This document shows positions 12,318 to 33,480 of a DNA stretch of 61,365 nucleotides, one piece after another. Each line of letters starts with the position of its first letter. Within the stretch, counting starts at the first letter, position 1. Below the pieces are notes generated by a model, which did not search any database, was not told the DNA's origin, and worked only from the letters and a program-made list of their open reading frames with translations. The DNA is taken from sequence record OQ992557.1, one strand, 5' to 3'. The translations under genes were made by a program, and so were the position numbers. Source of the DNA: Pseudomonas phage Chuck.

Positions 12318-12790
12318 AGCTGACCTCCGTGGAGTTCCCCGAGGCGCTGATTCAGCCACGCGACCTCCTTGGGCAGGAGCTGTTCCTGGTGGTCCACGAG
12401 GTAGCGCAGGCGGCGCAACTGTTCCTGGTTCTCGTTGGACAGCTTCGCCACGTTGCTTTCGAGGCGCTTCAGCTTCGCGGGTACGTCCTTGGCGAGTTCC
12501 GCCATCAGCCGGCACTCCTCCCCGAAGGCGCGGAGGGCGTCCCGGGACGCGGCCACGGGGTCGATGTTGTCCCCGTAGTTGTTGCCCAGGTACTCCGCGC
12601 AAGCGGCTCCCGCCGTCCCGATCAGCTGGAGGAGGTGCTGCTGGCTCGCGCACTGGCCCGGGTCGATGTCCGTGGAGGACTTCAAGCCGGGGCGCTTCTG
12701 GCTGTACACGAGGACCGTCACTTGGTACTTGCGGGGGTCCTCCGGGTTGCGCCCGAGGCGGGCCTGGACGCCCTGGATGGTAGTGGTCAT
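12314..12790 (-). CDS. hypothetical coiled-coil protein (158 aa)
   Basis: ATG 12790 (MTTTIQGV...) with AAGGAGAA RBS. Confidence 0.5.
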   Translation of the reverse strand: MTTTIQGVQARLGRNPEDPRKYQVTVLVYSQKRPGLKSSTDIDPGQCASQQHLLQLIGTAGAACAEYLGNNYGDNIDPVAASRDALRAFGEECRLMAELAKDVPAKLKRLESNVAKLSNENQEQLRRLRYLVDHQEQLLPKEVAWLNQRLGELHGGQL

Positions 12791-13392
12791 GCCGGTTCTC
12801 CTTCGCACAGGGGGTTGGCTTTCCAGAAGGCGCGCAGCTCGCGGCCCAGGTAGATGTTCACGCCGTCCTGGCCCTCGAAGAAGCCCCCGGCCCGGAAGGT
12901 CGGCACAACGGCGTCCTGCGCCCCGGCGGCGATCCCGTCCGCGGATTGAGCCCAGTTCAGGGCTTGATCGGCGGAGTCGAAACCCTGCGCCGTGAAGAAG
13001 CTGCCGGAGTCGCTGATGATGTAGAACTTGTCCAACTCCATTTCCAGACCGCTTCCGGGGTCCAGGAAGGTTTCCACGTGCTGCATCTTCCCGGTCGGGC
13101 TCCGTCCCCAGGCGCGGTTGCGGTTCACGCTCATCTTGTAGTCCACCACGGTCTGGAGGTCCACGTCCAGCTTCTCCGCGACCTGGGCGAGCATGATGAA
13201 CACGTCCGCGCACTCCTTCTGGAGTTCCTGGACCAACTCCTGGTCCATGTCCGCGACCGGGACGGCGGCGACGGTAGCGAGGCCCGCGACCAGCTCCGCC
13301 ACCTCCACGTTCATCCGCGCGGCGACTTCCGCGGGGTGCTTCGGGCCGAAGGTGTCGTCAGCCCAGCGGGTGATTGATTCTTGGGTTTCCAT
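12787..13392 (-). CDS. MazG-like nucleoside triphosphate pyrophosphohydrolase with C-terminal extension
   Basis: ITRWADDTFG...EVAELV...ELQKECADVFIMLAQVAEKLDVDL...NRNRAW matches the MazG all-alpha NTP-PPase core. Confidence 0.6.
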   Translation of the reverse strand: METQESITRWADDTFGPKHPAEVAARMNVEVAELVAGLATVAAVPVADMDQELVQELQKECADVFIMLAQVAEKLDVDLQTVVDYKMSVNRNRAWGRSPTGKMQHVETFLDPGSGLEMELDKFYIISDSGSFFTAQGFDSADQALNWAQSADGIAAGAQDAVVPTFRAGGFFEGQDGVNIYLGRELRAFWKANPLCEGEPA

Positions 13393-18740: not shown

Positions 18741-19123
18741 GTACAAATCTCCTTGGTTCTTGGAAGGCGTGTCCAACGTGCGACACAGACCTCATACAGG
18801 CGTTCTCGCGGAACCCGGCCCAGCATAGCAGCGGCCACCGCTCCATCGAATAGCAACCACTCCGTCTCCCCGACCTTCAGCAGAAGGAAGGCCCGGCCCC
18901 CGGCCTTGCGGCGACGGGTCAGCCAGGTCCTCTGCTGGCGGGTGAAGTGGTCCACTCGAAGCGGTCCGCCCCTGGGCGGCCAGCGTTCAGCGAACTTCAA
19001 TTCAATCCAGCCCTGGTTGTAGTTCACGTCCGGGGTCCCGGGCACAATGGGGTTCTCCACGCGCACCGGGTCCAGCGACCGGATGACGGGGCGGAGGGAG
19101 TCCCACATTGCGGCTTCAGACAT
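18725..19123 (-). CDS. PD-(D/E)xK family nuclease (VRR-NUC-like)
   Basis: GTPDVNY...GWIELK motif. Confidence 0.5.
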   Translation of the reverse strand: MSEAAMWDSLRPVIRSLDPVRVENPIVPGTPDVNYNQGWIELKFAERWPPRGGPLRVDHFTRQQRTWLTRRRKAGGRAFLLLKVGETEWLLFDGAVAAAMLGRVPRERLYEVCVARWTRLPRTKEICTCLLQ

Positions 19124-19577
19124 CTACCCACCTCACTTCGATGTTGTAACGGCGGGCGACTTCCAAAGCCTCATCAATGCGTTGATTCCACTCAGCAACC
19201 CACCCCGGATCGCGGCCCGAGTAGTCGATGCCCGGGAAGGCGACCCGCTTCACGCCCGCCTTCCCCGCGGCCTCCATACAGTTCGGACAGCAGGGGAAAG
19301 AAGTATAGAGCGTGAAGCCAGTCGCAGGCGAGCCCAGAAAGTTGAGTGCATTGACCTCTGCGTGAACAACGTGCTGGTACTTGTACCCGCGGTCAGCGTA
19401 CAGCTCCGGCGAGTCATCGTGCCCGGGCGGGAAGCCGTTGAACCCGGTCGAAGCCACGCTGTTGTTGGGCCGAACCAGGACGGCTCCGACCTTCGTGGAA
19501 GGGTCCTTGCTCCAGCCCGCGACGTGTTGGGCCAGCCCAACATAGCGGCGGTCCCAGCGGTCTTGACGTTCGCTCAT
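19116..19577 (-). CDS. dCMP deaminase
   Basis: HAEVNAL and PCCPNC zinc-binding motifs; GGAGGAGGTG RBS. Confidence 0.85.
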   Translation of the reverse strand: MSERQDRWDRRYVGLAQHVAGWSKDPSTKVGAVLVRPNNSVASTGFNGFPPGHDDSPELYADRGYKYQHVVHAEVNALNFLGSPATGFTLYTSFPCCPNCMEAAGKAGVKRVAFPGIDYSGRDPGWVAEWNQRIDEALEVARRYNIEVRWVDV

Positions 19578-19771: not shown

Positions 19772-20082
19772 ATCAGCCCCTTCTCGTTGGCGATCCATTC
19801 GGTGACGGTCAGGGTCGCTGTGCGGCCCTTCTTCTCGACCGCACGGACCTGTGACTTGGGCATCCAGACTTCCTCCTCACCGCCGTGGTCGATGAGGTAT
19901 GCCTTGTCTGTCTCGCGCTTGATGACCACTTCGAGGTCCACGGTGTTGTCGTTGCTGCGGCGCATATCGTTCTCCAGGGGTTCGCCCCGGACTTCCTCCG
20001 GGGTCAAGCGGGTACACTTTGCGCAGCGTGCGTCCGCAAACAAGTAAGTGACCTGCGCGTCACATTGATAGCAGAACTTCAT
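19768..20082 (-). CDS. hypothetical zinc-ribbon protein (104 aa)
   Basis: ATG 20082 (MKFCYQCDA...CAKC), coupled to the DNA polymerase stop. Confidence 0.5.
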   Translation of the reverse strand: MKFCYQCDAQVTYLFADARCAKCTRLTPEEVRGEPLENDMRRSNDNTVDLEVVIKRETDKAYLIDHGGEEEVWMPKSQVRAVEKKGRTATLTVTEWIANEKGLI

Positions 20083-22073
20083 GATGGCGGGTTCCCGTCC
20101 CAGCCCATGGAATGACCCCAGCTCTGCCCAATCTCCACGTCCACCTTTGACGGGAGTTCGAGCGGCGTACACGTCCGCATGATGTGGGCGGCTTCCGCGG
20201 CCTCCTTCATGTCGTGTACGCTGAAGGCGATCTCATCGTGGACCTGGATGATGATGTCCAGTCCGGCTTCCGCGCAGGCCACCATCGCCATCTTGGTCTG
20301 GTCCGCGGAGGAGCCCTGAATCAGCCGGTTCAGTCCCTTGTGGGTCCAGTCATAGTTCCCGTCCTTGTCCTTCGGGAAGCGGCAACGGCGACCGCTCAGG
20401 GTCGTGATGTAGCCCACGGCCTTCGCCCGGGCTTCGCAAGCCTTCGCCAGCTTCTTGATGAACGGCACCTTGTGGTCGAAGGTGTCCAGGAGGGCCTGAC
20501 CCTCCGGCCCCGCGGCCTCGAACCTCCGCGCCCCTTCCGCGACCAGGCGCTGACCCTCCGGGCTGTTCACGTCGAACAGCTGGAAGCGGGGGCCGCGCAC
20601 GGCCATCATAGTCGGGAGCCCGAGCTTGCGGCACATCTTCGCCCCGCCCATCCCGTAGGACAGGCCCAGGTAGATTTCCTTGGCGTCCTTGCGCTTGATC
20701 CCCGCCATGTCCGCCATCATCTGGTGGTTGTCGGTGTTCGGGTCGTTGCGGTACTTGTCCCGGGCTTCGATTGCGGACAGCCAGGCTTGGTGCCCAATCA
20801 GGTCCTTCGCCAAGCAGGCGTAGTGGACCGCCATGCGCGGCTCCTGCTGGCTGTAGTCGTTGGACGCCCAGTGTTGGCCTTCCTCCGGGAGGTAGATGGC
20901 CCGCCACATCATGGCGAACTCATCCCGAGCCGGTTGCTGCTGGAGGTTCGGGTGTTCGCTGGACAGTCGCCCGTAGGCAGCGCCCGCGGTCCCGTCGCTT
21001 TCGTCATCCTTCTGGCGGCGGAGCTGGTTGAACGTCCCGTGGAGGCGACCGTTCACCATGTGGTCCTTGACGGACTGGGCGAAGGTGGTGCGCAGCTTGT
21101 TCACCTTCCGGGCACGTTCGAGGAGGTCCGCCACGGGGTGGTCGATTGAGCCCAGCAGCTCCTTGTCGATGTTGGGCTTGCCCTGGGAGGTCTTGTTCAG
21201 CTTGATCCCGATATGTTCGAGGGCCGGGGCGATCACCTCCGGCTTCCAGACATCGCCCACGGCGATCCGGTGGCCGGTGATCGACCGGACTTGGGCCAGG
21301 GCCTCCGTCTCCTTCTCCAGCGCCCAACGCTCAATCATGTCCAGGCGGTCGCAGTCGATTCGGACGCCCCGGCGGCGAAGGCCCGTGAGGATCGGGAGCA
21401 GCTTGGACTCCAGATTGTACACGCCCCAGAGGTCCTGATCATCAATCTCCCGCTCCTGACGGCGGAGGATGTTCAGAGGCAGGCGCGTGTCCTCCTCCGC
21501 GTACTTCCCGACAAACTTGGCCGGGAGCATCCACATGTCCTTCTTCGGGTCAATCCCATAATCGACCGCGGCGGCGCGCAGCAGGGCTTCGTCCTTGCCG
21601 TGGAAGCCCCACCGCTCCGCGATAGCTTGCATGCTGTAGCTGTCATGGAGTTCGCAGATCAGCGGGTCAGCGATCTGGATGTCACGGAAGTAGCGGACCC
21701 GCTCGAACTCGATGCCGTCCCCGGCGAGGAAGTCCAGGTCATACGGGAGGTTGGCCCCCACGAGGTCGCCGGTGAACACCTTTGCCTGGGCGCGGAGGTA
21801 GGCCAGCACGCCCTCCAGCGGGAGGTTGCCCCCGCCTTCGTGTCTGATGGGCAAGTACCCGCCCGGGCCGTCCTCGATTGCGAAGCTGATGCCGGTGATG
21901 TAGCTGTTCGGGCGACGGCCCGCCCCCGGCCCCAGCTTCTTGAGGTCCGGGTCCCGCGTCTCGCAGTCGATGGCGACCCGCTTGGCCCCCTCCCACGAGG
22001 GGAGGGTGTTGAGGTCCGGGGCCACCCAGTCGCTGGAGACGGTCGTGAACAGGGGTGGTTGGAGGTATGACAT
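20079..22073 (-). CDS. family A DNA polymerase with N-terminal 3'-5' exonuclease
   Basis: Exo motif VAIDCET; polymerase motif A NDYSQQEPRM; motif B RKDAKEIYLGLSYGMG; motif C QVHDEI. Confidence 0.9.
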   Translation of the reverse strand: MSYLQPPLFTTVSSDWVAPDLNTLPSWEGAKRVAIDCETRDPDLKKLGPGAGRRPNSYITGISFAIEDGPGGYLPIRHEGGGNLPLEGVLAYLRAQAKVFTGDLVGANLPYDLDFLAGDGIEFERVRYFRDIQIADPLICELHDSYSMQAIAERWGFHGKDEALLRAAAVDYGIDPKKDMWMLPAKFVGKYAEEDTRLPLNILRRQEREIDDQDLWGVYNLESKLLPILTGLRRRGVRIDCDRLDMIERWALEKETEALAQVRSITGHRIAVGDVWKPEVIAPALEHIGIKLNKTSQGKPNIDKELLGSIDHPVADLLERARKVNKLRTTFAQSVKDHMVNGRLHGTFNQLRRQKDDESDGTAGAAYGRLSSEHPNLQQQPARDEFAMMWRAIYLPEEGQHWASNDYSQQEPRMAVHYACLAKDLIGHQAWLSAIEARDKYRNDPNTDNHQMMADMAGIKRKDAKEIYLGLSYGMGGAKMCRKLGLPTMMAVRGPRFQLFDVNSPEGQRLVAEGARRFEAAGPEGQALLDTFDHKVPFIKKLAKACEARAKAVGYITTLSGRRCRFPKDKDGNYDWTHKGLNRLIQGSSADQTKMAMVACAEAGLDIIIQVHDEIAFSVHDMKEAAEAAHIMRTCTPLELPSKVDVEIGQSWGHSMGWDGNPPS

Positions 22074-22459
22074 CAGGCTCCGACCTCCGCAATCATCTTG
22101 CGCAGGAGGTTCAGGGCCGCGGTCAGCTCCGGGTCGGACTCCCAGAAGGTGAGGATGCGGACCACTTCGGCTTCGTCCTCCGTCAGCCCGTTCGCGGCGG
22201 CGAAGGCGTCCGGGGTAATGACCACGGGGGCGGAGCGGGGCAGCAGGACCCCGTTGCGGTACAGGTCCTGGACCTTCTCCACGTAGTGGATCGCCTTCTC
22301 AAGGTCCTGGCGCGGGTCCTCGTGCTTCTTGCGGTTGCGGGTCGCGTACTTGGTCGCGCAGCCTTCGGTGTAGCGGAGGCCGTTCAGCTCCACGTAGTCC
22401 CAGTGTTGAACGGGCGAGCGGTAGTGCTCACCGCCCACTTGCTTTTCGTTCACGCTCAT
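22073..22459 (-). CDS. DUF3310-like phage protein (128 aa)
   Basis: GGEHY...HWDY...YTEGCATKY signature. Confidence 0.45.
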   Translation of the reverse strand: MSVNEKQVGGEHYRSPVQHWDYVELNGLRYTEGCATKYATRNRKKHEDPRQDLEKAIHYVEKVQDLYRNGVLLPRSAPVVITPDAFAAANGLTEDEAEVVRILTFWESDPELTAALNLLRKMIAEVGA

Positions 22460-22655
22460 CTTGTAACTCCTTCGTCAGTTCCCGGAGCCGGAGTGTCTGC
22501 TGGCGGTACAAGTACCCAAAACACCCGTGCTCCCCGTTCATCATATCTGTATGGACCTTGCGGAGGTGCGCAGCGAGTTCTTCCACCGTGTCGAAGGCGT
22601 AGAACTTCAGCTGCGGGTCCTCCGCCCAATCACGTCGCAGCTTCTCCAAGTCCAT
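22428..22655 (-). CDS. hypothetical protein (75 aa)
   Basis: Compact ORF in the operon. Confidence 0.4.
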   Translation of the reverse strand: MDLEKLRRDWAEDPQLKFYAFDTVEELAAHLRKVHTDMMNGEHGCFGYLYRQQTLRLRELTKELQDERERKASGR

Positions 22656-23265
22656 CGCGCACCACCTCCTCGAAGAAGTCCGAGAGACGGCGATGCGGCT
22701 GGTGCTTCGCTGCCACGTAGAAGGCGCGGACGGGTTCGGGCAGGCTACCCTCCAGGCCCCGCTTCTCCGTCACCGCCTCGCATGCCCTCCGCATGGCCGT
22801 GACCGCTTCGTTGCCCAGGGCTTCTTCCTCCCGGCACCACAGCCACAGTTCGAGGGTGTCCACGGCCTTCAACCAGTCCTCCTCGTCAGGGAGAAGGCCC
22901 GGGAGCAGGCCCAGGGTCGCCAGCACGCGGCGTTCCGCCTCCTCATACACCTTCCCGAGTTCGGAGTGGGTCCACTTCGCCGGGGCCGGGATGTCGCCCA
23001 ACCAACGCTCCGCGCAGTCGTGCCACTGGACCGCCTTGATCAGGTTCAGCGACGGGTGCGGGTGGAGCAGCAGCAGGAGGCTCACGGCCCCGTAGCTGTG
23101 CTGGGCGATGTTGTACTGACCGTGGTGCGGGACGATGTGGCACCGGCGGACCGTCCCGGCCTCCCGGGTCGCGGCGATCCGGGTCAGGAGCGGGCGGGCG
23201 GCGCGGCGGTTCAGCTCCTCCGCCTCGCGCTCCTCGTCATGAATCTTGCTCATCAGGCTTCCCAT
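22630..23265 (-). CDS. HD-domain phosphohydrolase (YfbR-like 5'-deoxynucleotidase; candidate dTMP/dNMP phosphatase)
   Basis: H...HD...D motif: AQHSYGAVSLLLLLHP...AVQWHDCAERWLGD. Confidence 0.6.
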   Translation of the reverse strand: MGSLMSKIHDEEREAEELNRRAARPLLTRIAATREAGTVRRCHIVPHHGQYNIAQHSYGAVSLLLLLHPHPSLNLIKAVQWHDCAERWLGDIPAPAKWTHSELGKVYEEAERRVLATLGLLPGLLPDEEDWLKAVDTLELWLWCREEEALGNEAVTAMRRACEAVTEKRGLEGSLPEPVRAFYVAAKHQPHRRLSDFFEEVVRDGLGEAAT

Positions 23266-23277
23266 TGTTGCGTCTCC

Positions 23278-24423
23278 TCACTCATATGCCACGCCATCGT
23301 CCATCGCCCGGGCCTTGCGGGCCTCGAAGGCGGCGCGGCGGCGTTCGATCCATTCCACCCCGGCCAGCTTCCAGTCGGTGGCGGCGACGTTGTCCAGCTC
23401 CGCCAAGGCGGCGTCAAAGCGGGAGGGGTTGGAGGTCTGCTTGAAAGCCTTGTGGGCCTTCAGCATCGGGATCGCCACGCGACGGAAGAACGGGTCACGG
23501 AAGCCCACGGCGTCCGGCTCGCTCAGGAACATCATCAGCTCCTGGTTCCACTCCTCCGGGTCCGTGGACATCAGCGGGTACGGCTCCGCGATCCCGGCGG
23601 CGTAGGGGTCGGGCGTCTCCTTCCCGGTCATCGGGTTGGCGGCGAGGTCCGCGAGCGGGGCGACCTTGTCCAGCACCTCCTCATAGGCGTGGAAGTTGGC
23701 GCTGACTTGGCGGTAGATGCCTTGTTCAACCCCGACACTCCGGGCGACGTACTCATGGAGGTAGCTGAAATGGACCGCGTTGGCCCCGTAGGCTCCCCAG
23801 ATCAGGTCGTTGGAGCGGTTGGTCACGGTCATGTCCAGGCGACCGTCGCAGGCGATCTGGAAGATGGCCTGAAGGTTGCAGGGGAGGTCCTTGCCTTGGC
23901 GGCCCAGGTCCGCGTCCGCGTCCCACATCGACAGAACCTGGCGGCGGTCATCGCGGTTCGCCTTCAGGGCGGCGATGATCTTGGGCAGCTGGTCCTCGAA
24001 GAAGTGCTGGCGCCAGCGGAAGCCGTAGGCCCCGTGGAATGTCAGGCCGTCATCCGAGTAGCTGTGCATGCGATCCACGAAGCGGGCGACGTACTCCACG
24101 TCATTGCGTCCGCCCAGCATCCAGAGGCTTTCCATCAGGTGGAAGAAGGGGTTGGCGTCCCGTTCCACCCAGAACAGCACGCGCTCCGCCGGGCGGAGGT
24201 ACACGGTGGTGACGGGTTCCGGGAACATGAACACGGGGCCGTTGCGCGAGTCGCGGCGGACGCCCTCGAAGGACAGTTGATACAGGGCCTCCGGGAGGGC
24301 CTGTTGTACGTTGCGGGTCTTGATGACTTTCATTTCTTGTTGAACTCCACGAAGATGACGTTGCCGGTCCGGCGAAGGACGCGGGGGCGAGGGAGCCAGA
24401 CCAACCACCAGCTCCAGTACCAC
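23278..24423 (-). CDS. thymidylate synthase (ThyA) family enzyme with diverged active site and about 100-aa C-terminal extension; predicted dUMP hydroxymethyltransferase or divergent TS
   Basis: Alignable to E. coli ThyA across the fold (ESLWML vs ELLWFL, RRQVLSMWD vs RRIIVSAWN). The catalytic PCH is PCN, QRSCD is NRSND, and GLPFNIASY is GAYGANAVHFSY. Confidence 0.75.
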   Translation of the reverse strand: MVLELVVGLAPSPPRPSPDRQRHLRGVQQEMKVIKTRNVQQALPEALYQLSFEGVRRDSRNGPVFMFPEPVTTVYLRPAERVLFWVERDANPFFHLMESLWMLGGRNDVEYVARFVDRMHSYSDDGLTFHGAYGFRWRQHFFEDQLPKIIAALKANRDDRRQVLSMWDADADLGRQGKDLPCNLQAIFQIACDGRLDMTVTNRSNDLIWGAYGANAVHFSYLHEYVARSVGVEQGIYRQVSANFHAYEEVLDKVAPLADLAANPMTGKETPDPYAAGIAEPYPLMSTDPEEWNQELMMFLSEPDAVGFRDPFFRRVAIPMLKAHKAFKQTSNPSRFDAALAELDNVAATDWKLAGVEWIERRRAAFEARKARAMDDGVAYE

Positions 24424-24455
24424 CAGAACGGCGAGAAGATCATGGCCCCCTCCTG

Positions 24456-25016
24456 TTAAGCCGAAGCGGTCTGAGGAGGAAGGCCCAGGCGGGCGTTCAG
24501 GTCCTTGATCGGCAGCGCGATAGCCCGGGACGGCGATTCAACCGCGAAGGGGCGGGCGAACTGCTCCACCTCCGGCCAGACCTGAATCAGCTTGTTGACC
24601 GTGGTCACGCTTTCGAGGACGGCCCAGGCTCCGGTCTTGGCCTCCTCCCGCTCGCGCTTGAACTGGGCGCGGTCCTTCAGGTAGGTGCGCAGCTTCTCGC
24701 CCAGCGGGTGGTCCGCGTTATAGACCTTGCCGGGGTTCGAGGCCCAGCAATCGGCCACGCGCTTCTTCTCCGGGAGGTCCAGCGAGTGGTAGGACTCCCC
24801 AACCACCTGGACGCGGATGTTGCTGCGGACTTCGAGGAAGCCGTTGGGCAGGGCGTACATGTGGGCGCGGACCGCTTCCGGGTACAGGTCGTTGTAGAAC
24901 TCCAGCGCCAGCTCCTTCTCGCGGGCGTCCAGGGCCTTCTCGCGGTCGGAGAAGGAGTGGGCGAGGATCGCGTCACGGACCTGCTCGCGGATGTAATTGG
25001 ACAGACGTACAGCCAT
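24456..25016 (-). CDS. hypothetical protein (186 aa) inside the modification cluster
   Basis: ATG 25016 with GGAGAA RBS. Confidence 0.5.
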   Translation of the reverse strand: MAVRLSNYIREQVRDAILAHSFSDREKALDAREKELALEFYNDLYPEAVRAHMYALPNGFLEVRSNIRVQVVGESYHSLDLPEKKRVADCWASNPGKVYNADHPLGEKLRTYLKDRAQFKREREEAKTGAWAVLESVTTVNKLIQVWPEVEQFARPFAVESPSRAIALPIKDLNARLGLPPQTASA

Positions 25017-25071
25017 GATGGTTTCTCCATTTCGTTGGTGCCGCCGGAATGGTCCGGCGGCGGGGTTTCGA

Positions 25072-26043
25072 TCATGCGAGGGTGGTTGCCTTGCGCCAGT
25101 CATACTTCGAGCGCATCTTGCCTTCGTTCAGGCGCACGCGCTCATACTTGTCGAACTCGCACAGCGTGTGTTCGATGTCCCGGGCCTCGAACCGCGGCCC
25201 CACGTGCGGGCTCCCGAGCTGCGGCGGTCCGAAGGTTTCGTTGAAGCCCCGGGCGTCCAGGGCGTTCAGCTCCTGCATCAGCTCGATCATTTCCGCGTTC
25301 GTCTGCTCCGGGCGGGGCTTCGCGGCGAGGTCGCGCCCGTACAGGCGGTTGAGCCCGCGGATCGCCCCGGGACCGGCGTTGGCCCAAGCCCAGATGTCCG
25401 GGGCGTTGCGCAGGTAGCGGGTGTGGCGGAGGTCGGTCACCACCTCATAGGCCATGAACGGACCCCAGCCGACGTAGCGGTGCTGCTGGAACTTCTCCCA
25501 GACGGTTTCGAGCCGGTTGAAGGACCGGAGGACGCCCGGAGTGGTTTCCAGCATCCGCTGCCATTCCTCGCGGTCCTCCCAGAGACGGCCCAGGACAATC
25601 TCCGCGATGTAGCGGTGCTTGGTCCAGCTGTACCACTCCTTGGAGGGGTCGGACTCCGCGCGGATCATGTAGGCTCCGGTGTACACCTTATCGCCGCGGA
25701 CGGCGCGGTGCTCCAGAGCGGTCGTGAGCCAGGAAGGCTCGAAGTCAGGGTTGTCGGGCCACTGCTTGGTCTGGATCAGCTCCGCGAGGGTATCCGGCCA
25801 GTTGATGTAGCGGGCGATGGCGAGCATGAACCAGAGGTGCGGGTGGTCCGCGTAGGGCTGACGGATATGCTTGTCAATCCAGATCGTCACGGTGTCCAGC
25901 TCGCGGAAGATGTTGCAGAACCGCCCATCACGCAGAACCGGGTCCGCGGTCCAGGGTCCGGGCTTCCCGGCCTTGCGGTCCAGGTAGATGTCGTGACGGG
26001 CCTTCATGAAGGCGGCGATGTCGTTGATGCGCGGGGTGGTCAT
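25072..26043 (-). CDS. aGPT-pyrophosphorylase-like protein (putative amino acid / polyamine:5-phosphomethyl-dU transferase), paralog 1
   Basis: 324 aa from ATG 26043 (MTTPRINDIAAF...). The motif FCNIFRELDTVTIW is the kind I associate with this family. Family assignment rests mainly on size and context. Confidence 0.45.
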   Translation of the reverse strand: MTTPRINDIAAFMKARHDIYLDRKAGKPGPWTADPVLRDGRFCNIFRELDTVTIWIDKHIRQPYADHPHLWFMLAIARYINWPDTLAELIQTKQWPDNPDFEPSWLTTALEHRAVRGDKVYTGAYMIRAESDPSKEWYSWTKHRYIAEIVLGRLWEDREEWQRMLETTPGVLRSFNRLETVWEKFQQHRYVGWGPFMAYEVVTDLRHTRYLRNAPDIWAWANAGPGAIRGLNRLYGRDLAAKPRPEQTNAEMIELMQELNALDARGFNETFGPPQLGSPHVGPRFEARDIEHTLCEFDKYERVRLNEGKMRSKYDWRKATTLA

Positions 26044-26054
26044 AGTCGGGGTCC

Positions 26055-26618
26055 TCAGCCCAAGTTCTCGATGACGGCCTTGATGTCCTTCAGGGCCGTC
26101 TCCCAGTGGATGTCGCGGACCGTCTCGCCGTCCGCCAGGGCCTTCTCGCGGACCCGGGCGATGGTGCGGTGCTTGTCGGCCACCTGGTCCTCCTTGATGG
26201 GCTTCCCGCCGTTGCGCTCCTGGATGCGCTTCAGGCAGACTTCGAGCGGCGTGTCCAGGAAGGCCCAGATCATTCCGCCGTTCGCCTTCGACCACTCCTG
26301 CCACGGACCGTAGATGGTGCTGACCACCACGCCCTCGAACAGGACCGCCTTCACGTCCGGGTCCCGCCCAACCAGCTCCGCGACGGCCTTGGCGGCGGCT
26401 TGGGTCTTGATCCGGTCCAGACCGGCGGTGGTCGCTCCGGCGGCGGCGGGGGTGTAGTCCCCGATGATGGCGATGCCGTCCGGGGCATACGTCACCGGGA
26501 TCGGCTTGTGGTCCGGGACGATGACGTTGATGACGCGGCAAAGCGGATCGCGGGCCAGGCAGCGCAGCAGGGTGGTCTTGCCGGAGCCGTTACAGCCCCG
26601 CACGTTGATGTACTTCAT
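26055..26618 (-). CDS. small P-loop nucleotide kinase (candidate 5-hmdU DNA kinase)
   Basis: Walker A GCNGSGKTT at the N-terminus; 187 aa; placed between the two paralogs. Confidence 0.55.
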   Translation of the reverse strand: MKYINVRGCNGSGKTTLLRCLARDPLCRVINVIVPDHKPIPVTYAPDGIAIIGDYTPAAAGATTAGLDRIKTQAAAKAVAELVGRDPDVKAVLFEGVVVSTIYGPWQEWSKANGGMIWAFLDTPLEVCLKRIQERNGGKPIKEDQVADKHRTIARVREKALADGETVRDIHWETALKDIKAVIENLG

Positions 26619-26672
26619 CTGGGTTCTCCATTTCAGTTGAAAACGGCGGAGCCGGAGCCCCGCCTGGGTTGC

Positions 26673-28115
26673 TCAGTCAATCTGCGTGATCGGGATGATC
26701 TTGCGCTCGCCGCCGTCCTCCTCCGGCGGGGTCGGTTCCACGATCTTCTTGAAGTCGGGCGAGCGCAGAGCCTTCGCCGCCCCGAACAGTTCCGAACCGC
26801 AGCGGGGCTTGCCCTCGTTGTCGTCCGCGCAGTGGAGACAGCCGGTGGGGGCGCACTCCTTGACCTCCTGGAAGGGCTGGCCCAGATCGGTCCGGGTGAA
26901 CATCGGGACGCGCTGGCCGTGGCACTGGTCCGCGGTGATCATTTCACGGCCCATCGAAAGCCAGGCCGGTTCGCCGGTTCCGGGCTTCCCGCGGCGGTAC
27001 TCATAGCACGTCGCGTAGGTCATGCCCAGCTCCGTCGCCCACTTCCGGTACAGCTGGTGGGCTTCGACCCGGTACGGCTCCGCGATGGTCTTTTGGGCTC
27101 CGGCCTGGTTCTCCGTGAACAGGTCCATGAAGGCTTTGGTGCGCTCCGGGCCGAACCGCTTGTGGAGACGTTCGATCATCGCCGGAGCCCAGCTGTAGCC
27201 CGCTTCCACAAACTTCACGATCACGTGGTTGTTGCCGACCGCGGCCAGGCGCTCGAACAGGTGGCGGATGTCGTCATGGGTGACGATCCCCGGGACCACC
27301 GGATTGACCTGAATGGACGTGTAGATGCCCTGACGGCGCAGCTCCGCGATTTCGTCAATGTGGTCCTGGAGGGAAATGGCCCCGGGGGACAACTTGTGCC
27401 AATCGCGGTCGTTGCCGGTGTTCAGCGACTTCTGGGCGTAGCTGTAGGGGTTCCGCTTCAGGAGGTCGATGGCCCAGGACGGGTAGCTGAGACGGCTCAG
27501 GAAGAAGATGGGCAGGCCCAACTCCACGAAGGCTTCCGCCCCCTGCTGGGTGTTGTGGTACACGTCCTCAATCGGCAGGAAGGGGTCCGTGAAGCTGGAG
27601 AAGTAGCCCGCGGCGGAGGTCCGGGACTTCGAGAGCATGTTGCGGACCTGCTCGCCGTAGTTCACCGGGACGCTGATGAGGCCGGTGCCGCGGTAGCCCC
27701 GGAACCCGCTGTTGACGTAGCAGAAGGCGCAACCCACGGTGCAGTAGCCCCCATAAGGCTCCGTCAGGATCGCCTCGCTGAAGCAGGGGCGGGCGCGGGA
27801 GCCTCGCTTGTCGTTGTGCTTGTCCTGGTACCAGCCCTGAAGTGGCTTGGCGTTCGGGATGCGGATGTGCGGGAGGTAGGTGACGTCATTGAAGCCAAGA
27901 TACACCTTGACCTCCTTCTTGTCGTCATCCTTCGCGTTGCGGACCATCCCCACCTTGGCCATGCGGAACTTCGCGCGCATGCCGGTCAGCGGGTCATCCT
28001 CCTCCTCGATTGGGCCCAGGAACTCCCGTTGGTTCGGGTCCGGGCGCATGAAATACTTGTAAGCCTCCTGAGCGGCTTCGCCGGTTTCTTCATTCAGCCA
28101 TGCTGCGTGGTCCAT
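26673..28115 (-). CDS. radical SAM enzyme (480 aa)
   Basis: CTVGCAFC = CxxxCxxC cluster; GAGGAG RBS; first gene after promoter P6. Confidence 0.75.
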   Translation of the reverse strand: MDHAAWLNEETGEAAQEAYKYFMRPDPNQREFLGPIEEEDDPLTGMRAKFRMAKVGMVRNAKDDDKKEVKVYLGFNDVTYLPHIRIPNAKPLQGWYQDKHNDKRGSRARPCFSEAILTEPYGGYCTVGCAFCYVNSGFRGYRGTGLISVPVNYGEQVRNMLSKSRTSAAGYFSSFTDPFLPIEDVYHNTQQGAEAFVELGLPIFFLSRLSYPSWAIDLLKRNPYSYAQKSLNTGNDRDWHKLSPGAISLQDHIDEIAELRRQGIYTSIQVNPVVPGIVTHDDIRHLFERLAAVGNNHVIVKFVEAGYSWAPAMIERLHKRFGPERTKAFMDLFTENQAGAQKTIAEPYRVEAHQLYRKWATELGMTYATCYEYRRGKPGTGEPAWLSMGREMITADQCHGQRVPMFTRTDLGQPFQEVKECAPTGCLHCADDNEGKPRCGSELFGAAKALRSPDFKKIVEPTPPEEDGGERKIIPITQID

Positions 28116-28142
28116 AGTTCAACTCCTCATCTATTGCGAAAA

Positions 28143-28171
28143 AGTCTAGTGCCTTACCCGGAAGAAGTAAA
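28143..28171 (-). promoter_or_regulatory. conserved-family promoter P6 with variant -10 (minus TAGACT), internal to the modification cluster
   Basis: ttgcgaaaaagtctagtgccttacccggaagaagtaaag; 17-nt spacing preserved. Confidence 0.55.
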
Positions 28172-28186
28172 GCACTATGAATTGGG

Positions 28187-29023
28187 TCACTCCCCGATGT
28201 TCCAGAACACGATGGGGCGTGGATGGACGGAAGCCAGGTTGAGCGGGTCACTCAGCCACTTCCAAGCCTTCAGATCATAGAACGGGTTGCAGGGGAACGG
28301 GGCGGAGGCGTCCCGGGCCGCGTCCGCGTACCCGTAGCCCTCGTCAATGAACTTGATCCGGTCGCCCAGGGTCAGTCCCGCGGCCTTCTCGATGTACTCC
28401 CGGGTGGCGTCCTGGCTCCGCGAGTAACCCATGTGAAGGATGACGTTGTAGCTGCGGAGCAGGCCCGCCTCCTCGAAGCCCTTGAGCACCCCGGCGGCGA
28501 CCGTCCCCGAGCTGATACTGATGACCAGGGTCCCGGAGTCCGGGAGGTGCGGGGCGGTGCGGACGGCCTCCGCGGCGTTCTCCGTGATCGACTCCGGGAG
28601 CTTCAGGGCGTTCGGCATCAGGTAGCTGTCGTGGTAGTTCTCCCGCAGGTGCTTCTTGGCCGTATGGTACAGGATCGCGGAGCGGCCCGCCGGGATGTCC
28701 ACGAGGTCCGCCCCGAGCTGGCGAGCGTGCTGCTGTTGGACGCGCGGGGCGTCCGCGGCCCCGTCGCGCTTGAAGCGGGGCCAGTAGTCCACGGCCTGTT
28801 TCCCGAGCTGCTGGCAGACGTAGGCAACCGCCCAGCCCGCCTTCGAGTGGTACGTGTCCAAACAGCCGATGGTGGTCTCAGGCCGGTTCTTGATATGGGC
28901 GACAACTCCGCGAATCTTGCTGAAGGACGGACCCGGGAGCGGGGCGCACAGGTCCTCCCGCTTCACGAGGATCGGGACCCCGTTGAGCTCATAGGTTTCG
29001 ACCGGGGTGTTGTTGACGATCAT
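28187..29023 (-). CDS. PLP-dependent enzyme, fold type II (ACC deaminase / D-cysteine desulfhydrase / TrpB superfamily)
   Basis: ATG 29023 with AGGAG RBS. VKREDLCAPLPGPSFSKIRG matches the family's vKRdDL...gNKlRk PLP-lysine region. Confidence 0.6.
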   Translation of the reverse strand: MIVNNTPVETYELNGVPILVKREDLCAPLPGPSFSKIRGVVAHIKNRPETTIGCLDTYHSKAGWAVAYVCQQLGKQAVDYWPRFKRDGAADAPRVQQQHARQLGADLVDIPAGRSAILYHTAKKHLRENYHDSYLMPNALKLPESITENAAEAVRTAPHLPDSGTLVISISSGTVAAGVLKGFEEAGLLRSYNVILHMGYSRSQDATREYIEKAAGLTLGDRIKFIDEGYGYADAARDASAPFPCNPFYDLKAWKWLSDPLNLASVHPRPIVFWNIGE

Positions 29024-29024
29024 C

Positions 29025-29909
<885 letters not shown>

Positions 29910-30966: not shown

Positions 30967-31473
30967 TCAGGTCCCCGTCCGAAGGCCAACAACCGTTGGA
31001 CGGCGGAGGGCGAACCGTTGTACAACTTCTTCCCAGAAGGCCCGGGCGGTGTCCTCGTGCCCAGGCTTCCTGTACCAATGGTTGCGCCCCGAGGTGTGCG
31101 GAACCACAGCGACCTCGAAGCCCCAGCGATCATCCGCAAACCACTGGTGGAAGTCCAGGTGCTGGGCCGGATAGCCGAAAGCCTCTGCGACGTTCCGCCC
31201 AACGAGGATGACGTGCCGACCGCCCAACAAGGGCTTCATCGCGGCTGCAGCAATCCCCGCGTCCCGGGCGGGCCACTTGTCGTCCCGCTTCCAGCGCCCC
31301 GGGAAGGTGTGGAGCAGGTTGGTGCGGTCGAAGGTCTTGAGGTAGTCCTTGGGCGATAGGCCCGCCAGCTCCGCCAGACGCCCTCCCGCGGAGGACCGCG
31401 GGAGGGGAGCCAGGGGCCGGTCGGGGTCCGTGTTAGGTCCGGGCGCTTGGCCGATGAGTAGGGGCTTGTTCAT
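30967..31473 (-). CDS. uracil-DNA glycosylase superfamily protein (family 4/5-like)
   Basis: Motif A GQAPG and motif B VPHTSGRN; AAATGGAGGAAC leader. Confidence 0.6.
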   Translation of the reverse strand: MNKPLLIGQAPGPNTDPDRPLAPLPRSSAGGRLAELAGLSPKDYLKTFDRTNLLHTFPGRWKRDDKWPARDAGIAAAAMKPLLGGRHVILVGRNVAEAFGYPAQHLDFHQWFADDRWGFEVAVVPHTSGRNHWYRKPGHEDTARAFWEEVVQRFALRRPTVVGLRTGT

Positions 31474-31621
31474 TCTGGGGTTCCTCCATTTCTTCTTGCG
31501 TGACGTTCAGGTTGATGGTCCGCTCCGGGACCGGGATGGCCCATTCAGCAAGGCGCATCCCGGTCATGAGGAGGAACCCGGCGGCGATCAGCAAGACCGC
31601 CTTCAGGCTCAGTTCTTTCAC
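31433..31621 (-). CDS. possible small membrane protein (about 62 aa) between RNR and UDG-like genes
   Basis: GTG overlapping the RNR stop (GTGA); high GC3 over KELSLKAVLLIAAGFLLMTGMRLAEW; the 3' end overlaps the UDG start. Confidence 0.3.
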   Translation of the reverse strand: MKELSLKAVLLIAAGFLLMTGMRLAEWAIPVPERTINLNVTQEEMEEPQNEQAPTHRPSART

Positions 31622-33480
31622 TCGCACTCCCTCCGTCCGGTGGCCGGGTCGATGCGGCACTGGCTTGCCGGCTCCTCCGCCGGGGCGTCCGCTTCGGGCT
31701 CGCCGCCGTCATCCTTCACCACGAGGATGCCCGACCGCTTCCCGCCCAAGCGGAAGGTGGTGCAGCCCTTCGCCCCGCCTTCCCAGGCGCTCACGTACAC
31801 GTTCTTGAAGTCCTCCCAGCTGATGTCGGAAGGCACGTTGCAGGTCTTGCTCACCGCGGAATCGACCCGCTGGGCGGCGACGGTCAGGGCGGCGACGTGT
31901 TCCTGTACGGTGACGCGGGAGCAAGCCTTGCCGCGGACCCCGAACACGCGGGCACCGTAGTCCTCCACCGTCTCCACCCGCGGGCCGCTGAACTCGATCA
32001 CGGTGCGGTCGAAGCTGTAGGCGAACACCGGCTCAATCCCGGAGCTGACGTTGTCGGCGCACAGGCTGATGGTCCCGGTCGGGGCGATGGAAGTGAGGTG
32101 GGAGTTGCGGATGCCGTATTTGGCGATGGCGTCCCGCACGTCCTCGCGGAGGGTCTTGATGAACTGGCCCTGCAGGTACTTGTCCTTGTCGAACTTCGGG
32201 AAGGAGCCCTTGACCTTGGCGATGTGGGCGCTGGCCAGGTAGGACTCATCACGCAGCGTGTCCAGCACCTCCGCCTCGAAGGCGAGGAAGGCGGGCGAAC
32301 CGTACTCATGGCCCAGGGCTTCGGCGGCGTTGGCCAGGCCGGTGATCCCGAGGCCCATGCGGCGCTTGTCCTTGGCTTCCTGCTTCTGCTGCGGCAGCGG
32401 GTAGATCGCGCGATCAACCACGTTGTCCATCGCGCGGACCACCTGCGGGATGTCCTCGCGGTACTGGTCCCAGTCGAAGGCGTAGCGGCCCGCCCCGTCC
32501 TTGAAGATGTACTTGACCAAGTTGAAGGAGCCCAGGAGGCAGGCACCGTAGGGCGGGAGCGGTTGCTCACCGCAGGGGTTCGTGGCGGCGATGGTCTCGC
32601 AGTACCAGAGGTTGTTCATGCGGTTGATCGCGTCGATGAACAGCACCCCGGGCTCCGCCCAGTCCCAGGTCCCGCGCATGATCGCGTCCCACAGCGCCCG
32701 GGCGTCCACTTCGCGGTAGGTCCGGCCCTCGAAGGTGAGGGGGAACGGCTCGCCGGAGGCGACGCACTCCATGAACTTGTCGGTGATGGCGACGGAGACG
32801 TTGAAGCCGGTCAGCTTCAGGGTCTGCTGAAGGGACATGACCAACTGCTGCTTCTGGGCTCCTTCCGGGAGTTCGGCCACGAGGTCCCAGAGCGGCTGAA
32901 CGTCCTTCCCGGGTTGCTTGGCGTGAATGAACTCCTCAATGTCGGGATGATCCACGCGCATCACCCCCATCTGGGCTCCGCGGCGATGACCGGAGGAGGC
33001 GACGCACTTGCAGATCGCGTCGAAGATGTGCATGAAGCTGATGGGGCCGGAGGAGTGGGACTGGAGCTTGCGGATCAGGTCGCCGCGAGGACGGAGGGTG
33101 CTGAAGTCATAGCCGATCCCGCCGCCCATCCGCATCGTGGCTGCGGCTTCCGCGGCCCGGACCATGATGGAGCCTTCGCCGTCCACGAAGCTGTCGTTGA
33201 TCGTCCCGGAGACGTAGCAGTTGTATGGCGTGACCTGGCGAGTGGAGCCCATCGCGGACTGGATGCGGCCCGCCGGGAGGAAGCGCATGCCCAGGAGGGC
33301 GTCCCGGAAGTCCGCGAAGTGCTGGTCATCGTCCTTCAGGGCCGCGGCGATCCGGTTCATGGCCTCGCGGAAGGACTCGCCGCTGCCGCGGTACTTCTGG
33401 GCGTGTAGTTCTTGTGAGTAGGGTACTTGAGGACCGTGCATTTTGCGAGTCTCCTTGAAGGGTTGAGGGCTTTCTATCAT
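31618..33480 (-). CDS. nrdJ: ribonucleotide reductase, probably class II (B12-dependent), 620 aa
   Basis: Active-site NPCGEQ motif and C-terminal CxxC. No beta-subunit gene is present in the genome. Confidence 0.7.
   Translation of the reverse strand: MIESPQPFKETRKMHGPQVPYSQELHAQKYRGSGESFREAMNRIAAALKDDDQHFADFRDALLGMRFLPAGRIQSAMGSTRQVTPYNCYVSGTINDSFVDGEGSIMVRAAEAAATMRMGGGIGYDFSTLRPRGDLIRKLQSHSSGPISFMHIFDAICKCVASSGHRRGAQMGVMRVDHPDIEEFIHAKQPGKDVQPLWDLVAELPEGAQKQQLVMSLQQTLKLTGFNVSVAITDKFMECVASGEPFPLTFEGRTYREVDARALWDAIMRGTWDWAEPGVLFIDAINRMNNLWYCETIAATNPCGEQPLPPYGACLLGSFNLVKYIFKDGAGRYAFDWDQYREDIPQVVRAMDNVVDRAIYPLPQQKQEAKDKRRMGLGITGLANAAEALGHEYGSPAFLAFEAEVLDTLRDESYLASAHIAKVKGSFPKFDKDKYLQGQFIKTLREDVRDAIAKYGIRNSHLTSIAPTGTISLCADNVSSGIEPVFAYSFDRTVIEFSGPRVETVEDYGARVFGVRGKACSRVTVQEHVAALTVAAQRVDSAVSKTCNVPSDISWEDFKNVYVSAWEGGAKGCTTFRLGGKRSGILVVKDDGGEPEADAPAEEPASQCRIDPATGRRECE

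Follow-up and report, generated by a model that had tools for sequence, protein, structure and literature searches.

A thymidylate synthase homolog of Pseudomonas phage Chuck is very probably the dUMP hydroxymethylase at the entry to M6-type thymidine hypermodification

In the deoxycytidine monophosphate (dCMP) hydroxymethylase of phage T4, the water molecule attacking the exocyclic methylene is activated by an Asp that lies three residues N-terminal to the catalytic Cys, whereas thymidylate synthase (TS) has Leu143 at this position and requires a C-terminal tail, which seals the site for hydride transfer (PMC6400193). A 2026 study listed the residues within 6 Å of C5 of deoxyuridine monophosphate (dUMP) in E. 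coli ThyA and reported that N177 sets uracil versus cytosine, that the L143 position correlates with a methyl versus a hydroxymethyl product, and that D169N marks the 5-hydroxy-dCMP synthases (PMC13326640). Phage SPO1 gp29, annotated in its own record as a dUMP hydroxymethylase, is cited as such (Wilhelm & Ruger 1992) in PMC8989533, and in SP8, a relative with a gp29 homolog in its record, 5-hydroxymethyldeoxyuridine (5-hmdU) replaces T completely (PMC5889632). The phage M6 proteins gp54, gp51, gp53, and gp52 convert 5-hmdU in DNA to 5-(2-aminoethyl)uridine in vitro (PMC8989533); 5-NedU has been found in M6 virion DNA and is predicted for YuA, LKO4, and AN14 (PMC5889632). Here we analyze a TS homolog encoded on the minus strand of Pseudomonas phage Chuck (record OQ992557.1; the whole stretch analyzed, 61,365 nucleotides, is hereafter the window). 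We conclude that it is very probably a folate-dependent dUMP hydroxymethylase (5-hydroxymethyl-dUMP, or 5-hmdUMP, synthase) of the TS superfamily, catalyzing the first, pre-replicative step of M6-type thymidine hypermodification. Its fold, residues, synteny, and orthology are observed directly; the catalytic outcome we infer. The gene and its parts lie as follows:

23278..24333, minus strand: predicted dUMP hydroxymethylase (deoxyuridylate hydroxymethyltransferase) coding sequence (CDS), 351 aa plus stop; ortholog of the TS homolog of M6, YuA, and Lydia (gp4)
24334..24423, minus strand: 30 in-frame codons of the GTG-start reading frame, probably outside the protein; a small reading frame in another frame covers the region
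23683..24333, minus strand: TS-fold catalytic core, residues 1-217, from the secondary structure of the model and residue mapping to E. coli ThyA, SPO1 gp29, MilA, and T4 gp42
23278..23682, minus strand: C-terminal five-helix domain, residues 218-351 (helices 218-230, 259-271, 281-297, 305-313, and 319-345), in place of the TS C-terminal tail

We aligned the window protein with E. coli ThyA (sequence verified identical to PDB 1aob), T4 gp42, MilA, SPO1 gp29, SP10 gp188, and PaMx11 gp51, numbering residues by the 351-aa form, and assessed conservation in 121 sequences, namely the window protein and 120 homologs down to 56% identity. MAFFT puts Asp179 of T4 gp42 one column off (Y180 is shown), and T4 numbering was therefore taken from the literature. 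The window protein reads P151-C152-N153 where E. coli ThyA has P145-C146-H147, and N172-R173-S174-N175-D176 where ThyA has Q165-R166-S167-C168-D169, so that PCN stands for PCH and NRSND for QRSCD exactly as a preliminary description of this sequence had stated. D149, P151, N153, R173, S174, N175, D176, and N185 show no replacement in any of the 121 sequences, and at C152 and at N172 one or two sequences carry another residue (Asn172 is kept in 119); because they are kept so widely, the motif residues are not a product of chance. The key residues of the core, each replaced in at most two sequences, are Arg30, Glu68, Tyr103, Arg130/131, Asp149, Cys152, Asn153, Asn172-Arg-Ser-Asn-Asp176, Asn185, His215, and Tyr217. 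The catalytic Cys and the phosphate arginines of ThyA (C146, R21, R126', R127', and R166) correspond to C152, R30, R130, R131, and R173, kept in 120-121 of the 121.

Three of these positions carry the functional assignment. D149, invariant, occupies the position of ThyA L143 three residues before the catalytic Cys and is the hydroxymethyl marker; N185, also invariant, is the uracil-type Asn at the N177 position; and D176, invariant as well, keeps the Asp of D169, as expected for folate one-carbon transfer and not for the D169N 5-hydroxylase type. Because all three are present, we read the protein as a dUMP hydroxymethylase. The first shell of a classical TS is absent: D149, N153, N172, and N175 stand for Leu143, His147, Gln165, and Cys168, and there is no Trp at the positions of Trp80 and Trp83. 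Nor does the protein carry the signature of T4-type dCMP hydroxymethylases, having N185 for Asp and G101-A102-Y103 for S/T-x-Y. To judge from the alignments, PCN and NRSND together form a signature of the dUMP hydroxymethylase family and are not oddities.

SPO1 gp29 shares this residue set, and the family profile aligns with it by hhalign at a probability of 100% (E 3.8e-40, 272 columns, 34% identity over residues 6-287). It is identical to the window protein at every active-site position compared, namely Y103, K148, D149, C152, N153, N172, S174, N175, D176, G180, and N185; it and SP10 gp188 have the same TS-fold core, with DxPCN, NRSND, and G-A-N in common with the window protein, and they, too, are considerably extended at the C terminus (383 and 382 aa in total). 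The SPO1 type differs in being only ~30% identical, in 10 extra residues inserted behind the Tyr loop, and in having 157 versus 134 residues after H-x-Y; the homology of its distal C-terminal helices to the window protein is weak, the hhalign alignment ending at residue 287. The role of 5-hmdU differs too, a full replacement of T in SP8 and an intermediate in the pathway of the window phage. T4 gp42 belongs to the chemistry class predicted for the window protein, with addition of water onto the exocyclic methylene and release of tetrahydrofolate (THF), and resembles it in Asp145, three residues before Cys148, and in the R-S-N-D motif. E. coli ThyA is alike in fold, catalytic Cys, phosphate-binding arginines, Asn177, Asp169, His207, and Tyr209, but the window protein departs from it by L143D, H147N, Q165N, C168N, and A142K, by the loss of Trp80 and Trp83, and by a helical domain in place of the tail, and the expected products differ.

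The ThyA fold claimed in the preliminary description is borne out by matches to the TS family (Pfam PF00303, E 4.7e-18) and to PHROG 5131 (E 1.9e-171) and by an AlphaFold model built from 49 homologs (predicted local distance difference test, pLDDT, 95.2), in which a TS core extends to about residue 217 and is followed by five helices. The structural comparison proposed there thus yields a confident TS-fold model whose nearest solved structure is a hydroxymethylase, not a TS. This is MilA, the CMP 5-hydroxymethylase of Streptomyces rimofaciens (PDB 5b6d, 5jnh, 5jp9), which is ~22% identical and whose hhalign alignment extends to residue 305. MilA differs in acting on CMP, in having Asp at the N177 position and Thr after the Cys, and in being a bacterial antibiotic-pathway enzyme; it also has Ala for Ser167, and this ribose-preferring enzyme thus carries Ala where the window protein has Ser174 (PMC5175136).

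After the conserved H-x-Y (H215, Y217) the window protein continues for 134 residues, compared with 55 in E. coli ThyA, 28 in T4 gp42, and 157 in SPO1 gp29. The model and the alignment agree that the tail that closes the folate site of TS is absent, five helices without a counterpart in E. coli ThyA following H215-x-Y217. What had been described as an appended C-terminal extension of about 100 aa is a real addition, but with total lengths of 351 and 264 aa the net gain over E. coli ThyA is ~80 aa, and the change is a substitution of the TS C-terminal segment, not a simple lengthening of it. A second activity of this part, also suggested earlier, was dropped, and with it a second catalytic domain: with a cutoff as lax as E 10, Pfam returned no match to residues 218-351, and the domain modeled alone (pLDDT 89) found nothing usable in a viral structure library (best E 0.58). 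Such an addition at the C terminus is a family feature that SPO1 gp29 and MilA also have. The MilA domain is located at a distance from the active site, and truncating it renders the enzyme insoluble (PMC5175136); by analogy, the most likely role of the five helices in the hydroxymethylase clade is to support structure or solubility.

At the nucleotide level the gene is 98-99% identical to those of some fifty Yuavirus (Mesyanzhinovviridae) siphophages of Pseudomonas aeruginosa, among them BL8, Lydia, LKO4, AN14, YuA (98.2%), and M6 (98.1%). The window is itself a Yuavirus genome, of fitting length and G+C content. The TS homologs of M6, YuA, LKO4, AN14, MP1412, and Lydia are likewise 351 aa long and occupy the equivalent place in the cluster, with only a few point differences. 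The near identity of the M6 ortholog supports the hydroxymethylase assignment, because M6 DNA carries 5-NedU and the M6 enzymes act on 5-hmdU DNA. This assignment is already known from the literature and from GenBank and is not new. Figure 2 of Lee et al. 2018 labels the TS homolog next to 5-HMUDK 'dU hmt' in maps that include M6-like phages (PMC5889632), the SN1 genome note lists a 'pyrimidine hydroxymethylase' in the cassette (PMC9476957), and a 2025 paper on Lydia names the 99%-identical ortholog DUHMT (gp4) and analyzes its phylogeny (PMC11946847). The GenBank records of Lydia, S218, MP1412, and Bordetella phages carry the dUMP hydroxymethyltransferase name. A more distant copy of the gene, at 84.5% nucleotide identity, lies at 114127-115127 of the 175-kb record of Escherichia phage ERS-1 (PP337211.1), an unexpected host and genome type. 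The G+C content of the window is ~65%, and a Pseudomonas-phage gene of such composition in ERS-1 could reflect horizontal transfer or a mixed assembly.

A minus-strand open reading frame (ORF) does occupy 23278-24423, as first described, and counts 381 aa from a GTG; the GTG start did not hold. ORF residues 31-381 span positions 1-357 of 357 of the PHROG 5131 profile ('thymidylate synthase'), the Lydia ortholog is a 351-aa CDS (record name 'deoxyuridylate hydroxymethyltransferase'), and PaMx11 gp51 likewise begins MKVIKTRN. A GGAG precedes the ATG at 24333, which also shares nucleotides with the stop codon of a 37-aa ORF; no Shine-Dalgarno sequence precedes the GTG at 24423. On these grounds we dropped the GTG: judged from the sequence, translation almost certainly begins with the ATG at 24333 and yields a 351-aa product (23278-24333), and the first 30 codons of the 381-aa ORF (24334-24423) are probably untranslated. 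The 37-aa ORF (24330-24443, minus strand; MIFSPFWWYWSWWLVWLPRPRVLRRTGNVIFVEFNKK) is Trp-rich, its TGA overlapping the hydroxymethylase ATG as ATGA, and is a hypothetical protein in relatives including Lydia; a Pfam search of it gave no family match.

The gene stands in a complete cluster of the M6 type, listed here in the direction of transcription:

31618-33480, minus strand: ribonucleotide reductase
29025..29900, minus strand: amino acid:DNA transferase (aGPT-Pplase2), counterpart of M6 gp51 (PF18724, E 1.3e-46; PMC8989533)
28187..29023, minus strand: pyridoxal phosphate (PLP)-dependent enzyme, counterpart of M6 gp52, a decarboxylase (PF00291; PMC8989533)
26673..28115, minus strand: radical S-adenosylmethionine (SAM) enzyme, counterpart of M6 gp53, a glycinyl-thymine isomerase (PF04055; PMC8989533)
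26055..26618, minus strand: P-loop 5-hmdU DNA kinase, counterpart of M6 gp54 (PF18748, E 7.4e-18; M6 gp54 function in PMC8989533)
25072..26043, minus strand: HMUDK_hel protein, 323 aa (PF18723, E 1.8e-55)
24456..25016, minus strand: Nmad5 (nucleotide modification associated domain 5) protein, 186 aa (PF18757, E 2.4e-32); start matches the Lydia CDS
22630..23265, minus strand: HD-domain YfbR-like 5'-deoxynucleotidase (PF12917, PF13023), directly downstream of the hydroxymethylase
22073..22459, minus strand: DUF3310 protein, candidate 5-hmdUMP kinase (PF11753 weak, E 1.9e-4, below the curated cutoff; 'nucleotide kinase gp1.7 T7-like' in Lydia)
20079..22073, minus strand: family A DNA polymerase (PolA), from the ORF, the Lydia annotation, and a syntenic PF00476 gene in metagenomic contig L008; presumed to accept 5-hydroxymethyldeoxyuridine triphosphate (5-hmdUTP)
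19116..19577, minus strand: dCMP deaminase, dUMP supplier (PF00383, E 1.8e-16)

The 37-aa ORF and the hydroxymethylase gene fall between the Nmad5 and HD genes. Directly upstream of the hydroxymethylase and on the same strand, at 24456-29900, is thus the M6-order set PF18748, PF18723, PF18757, PF04055, PF00291, and PF18724; the SN1 announcement lists an aGPT-Pplase1 gene in the cassette (PMC9476957), apparently the HMUDK_hel gene at 25072..26043. The Pfam match at 19116-19577 upholds the dCMP deaminase that the preliminary description had placed there. With E. coli ThyA or the hydroxymethylase itself as query, tblastn of the window revealed no TS locus besides 23278-24333, the ThyX motif RHRx7S occurs in the window only in two short spurious ORFs, and neither ThyA nor ThyX is annotated in Lydia. 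On these searches we rejected the idea that the phage has a further TS; because the cluster enzymes need 5-hmdU in DNA, the hydroxymethylase is the sole candidate source of 5-hmdU.

The mechanism that we propose draws on the conserved residues and on the established chemistry of TS and T4 dCMP hydroxymethylase. A homodimer would bind dUMP, supplied by the dCMP deaminase, through Arg30, Arg130'/Arg131', Arg173, Ser174, His215, and Tyr217, with Asn185 reading the O4/N3 face of the uracil. The Cys152 thiolate would add to C6, C5 would attack the N5-iminium of 5,10-methylene-THF, and loss of the C5 proton through a Tyr103/Glu68 network, with elimination of THF, would leave the exocyclic methylene. 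In place of the hydrophobic shield of Leu143 and Trp80 and the closing C-terminal tail of TS, this protein would present Asp149, Met89, and a remote helical domain. With Asp at the Leu143 position and the site left open by the lack of a tail, water activated by Asp149, rather than hydride from THF, would add to the methylene, and the products would be 5-hmdUMP and THF, not dTMP and dihydrofolate (DHF). The gp1.7-like kinase and the host NDP kinase would then make 5-hmdUTP for incorporation by the phage PolA, after which part of the 5-hmdU in DNA would become 5-(2-aminoethyl)uridine through the 5-hmdU DNA kinase, the glycine:DNA transferase, the radical-SAM isomerase, and the PLP decarboxylase.

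Several points weigh against this assignment. The Ser/Thr-x-Tyr element of the T4 dCMP hydroxymethylase (dCH) signature is absent (Gly101-Ala102-Tyr103; SPO1 gp29 likewise has Asn-Ala-Pro-Tyr), so the geometry of water activation in the dUMP branch may differ from that in T4 dCH. In M6 virions the replacement reaches only ~30-50% of thymine, so the phage still needs a route to thymine that the hydroxymethylase does not explain. The Lydia paper still words DUHMT as 'putative' (PMC11946847), most GenBank records say just 'thymidylate synthase', and we found no enzyme assay of the window protein or of its Yuavirus or PaMx11-type orthologs in the searchable literature.

It is the partial replacement of thymine that would be explained if the enzyme partitioned between dTMP and 5-hmdUMP. 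Such a mixture, or another C5 product altogether, as from a flavin-dependent 5-hydroxylase of the kind represented by the RB69/DLP3 TS homologs, strikes us as improbable: the active site matches that of SPO1 gp29 at the compared positions, and the full replacement of T by 5-hmdU in SP8, which has a gp29 homolog, indicates that such a residue set can go with complete replacement (PMC5889632). In PhiW-14 and SP10, moreover, thymine arises from 5-hmdU after replication (PMC5889632). A flavin-type 5-hydroxy-dCMP synthase was rejected because Asp176 and Asn185 are retained; the diagnostic D169N is absent, Asp176 being invariant, and the 5-hydroxylase clade uses dCMP, with Asp at the N177 position.

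That the protein is a canonical TS, making dTMP and DHF from dUMP with its divergent residues the outcome of neutral drift, is more improbable still. Membership in PF00303, the 'thymidylate synthase' label of most records, the ordinary thymine still present in the virions, and the retained equivalents of the catalytic Cys, Arg166, Ser167, Asp169, Asn177, His207, and Tyr209 would all accord with it. The record label, however, is an automatic family name and not evidence, and drift does not sit well with Leu143 to Asp, His147 to Asn, and Cys168 to Asn fixed in all 121 sequences, Gln165 to Asn in 119 (Asn172), and the loss of Trp80 and Trp83. The protein lacks the C-terminal tail with which TS closes off its folate site for hydride transfer (PMC6400193), the same residue set recurs in the SPO1 dUMP hydroxymethylase, and the later enzymes of the cluster require 5-hmdU in DNA. 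Least likely of all, and barely tenable, is an enzyme of the T4 gp42 or MilA kind that hydroxymethylates dCMP or CMP, a reading suggested by the records of AN14 and LKO4 ('thymidylate synthase/dCMP hydroxymethylase'), for although MilA is the closest solved structure and Asp at the Leu143 position is common to dCMP/CMP hydroxymethylases, the N177 position holds the invariant Asn185 where MilA (by the alignment) and T4 gp42 (Asp179, from the literature) have Asp (PMC5175136, PMC13326640), Ser174 favors deoxyribose where MilA has Ala176, the phage-encoded dCMP deaminase feeds dUMP, and the known M6 modification is on thymine, not cytosine. The reading as a dUMP hydroxymethylase rather than a canonical TS, offered in the preliminary description, is therefore supported by residues that match SPO1 gp29, by MilA as the nearest structure, by the M6-type cluster, and by the annotation of orthologs.

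Some neighbors of the gene bear further comment. An HD/YfbR-like gene also adjoins the hydroxymethylase gene downstream in PaMx11 (gp52) and in Bordetella phages. In a metagenomic relative, P0098 (543 aa; L008 8001-9632), Nmad5 and the TS-fold enzyme form one polypeptide on a contig syntenic with the window; the fusion may be genuine or may stem from the assembly and, as one contig from a single run, is a hint only. The HMUDK_hel and Nmad5 proteins of Lydia (PaL_00001/00002) are both labeled '5-hmdU DNA kinase domain protein', the first CDS apparently being cut by the chosen genome start, and the counterpart of the real P-loop kinase (26055-26618 in the window) is a 'putative kinase' at the opposite end of the Lydia record. 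The window ORF at 30967-31473 (minus strand, 168 aa) is uracil-DNA-glycosylase-like in the annotation of relatives, with no Pfam match in the window, and a MazG-like pyrophosphatase is annotated in Lydia (record 12345-12956). Both proteins could bear on the pools of dUTP, dTTP, and 5-hmdUTP and on the tolerance of modified uracil.

The HD/YfbR-like nucleotidase at 22630-23265 may deplete the pools of dTMP or of other deoxynucleoside monophosphates. If it removes dTMP, the ordinary thymine of the virion would need to be formed post-replicatively from 5-hmdU, a step called unknown in PMC5889632. As a discovery, the assignment carries little weight, for the protein is the known entry enzyme of M6-type thymidine hypermodification, and the inference of the preliminary description re-derives a published annotation. 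Its use lies in annotation: the PHROG family and most GenBank records still read 'thymidylate synthase', and D149, N153, N172, N175, and N185 together with the helical C-terminal domain provide a clean marker by which such genes can be re-annotated as dUMP hydroxymethylases.

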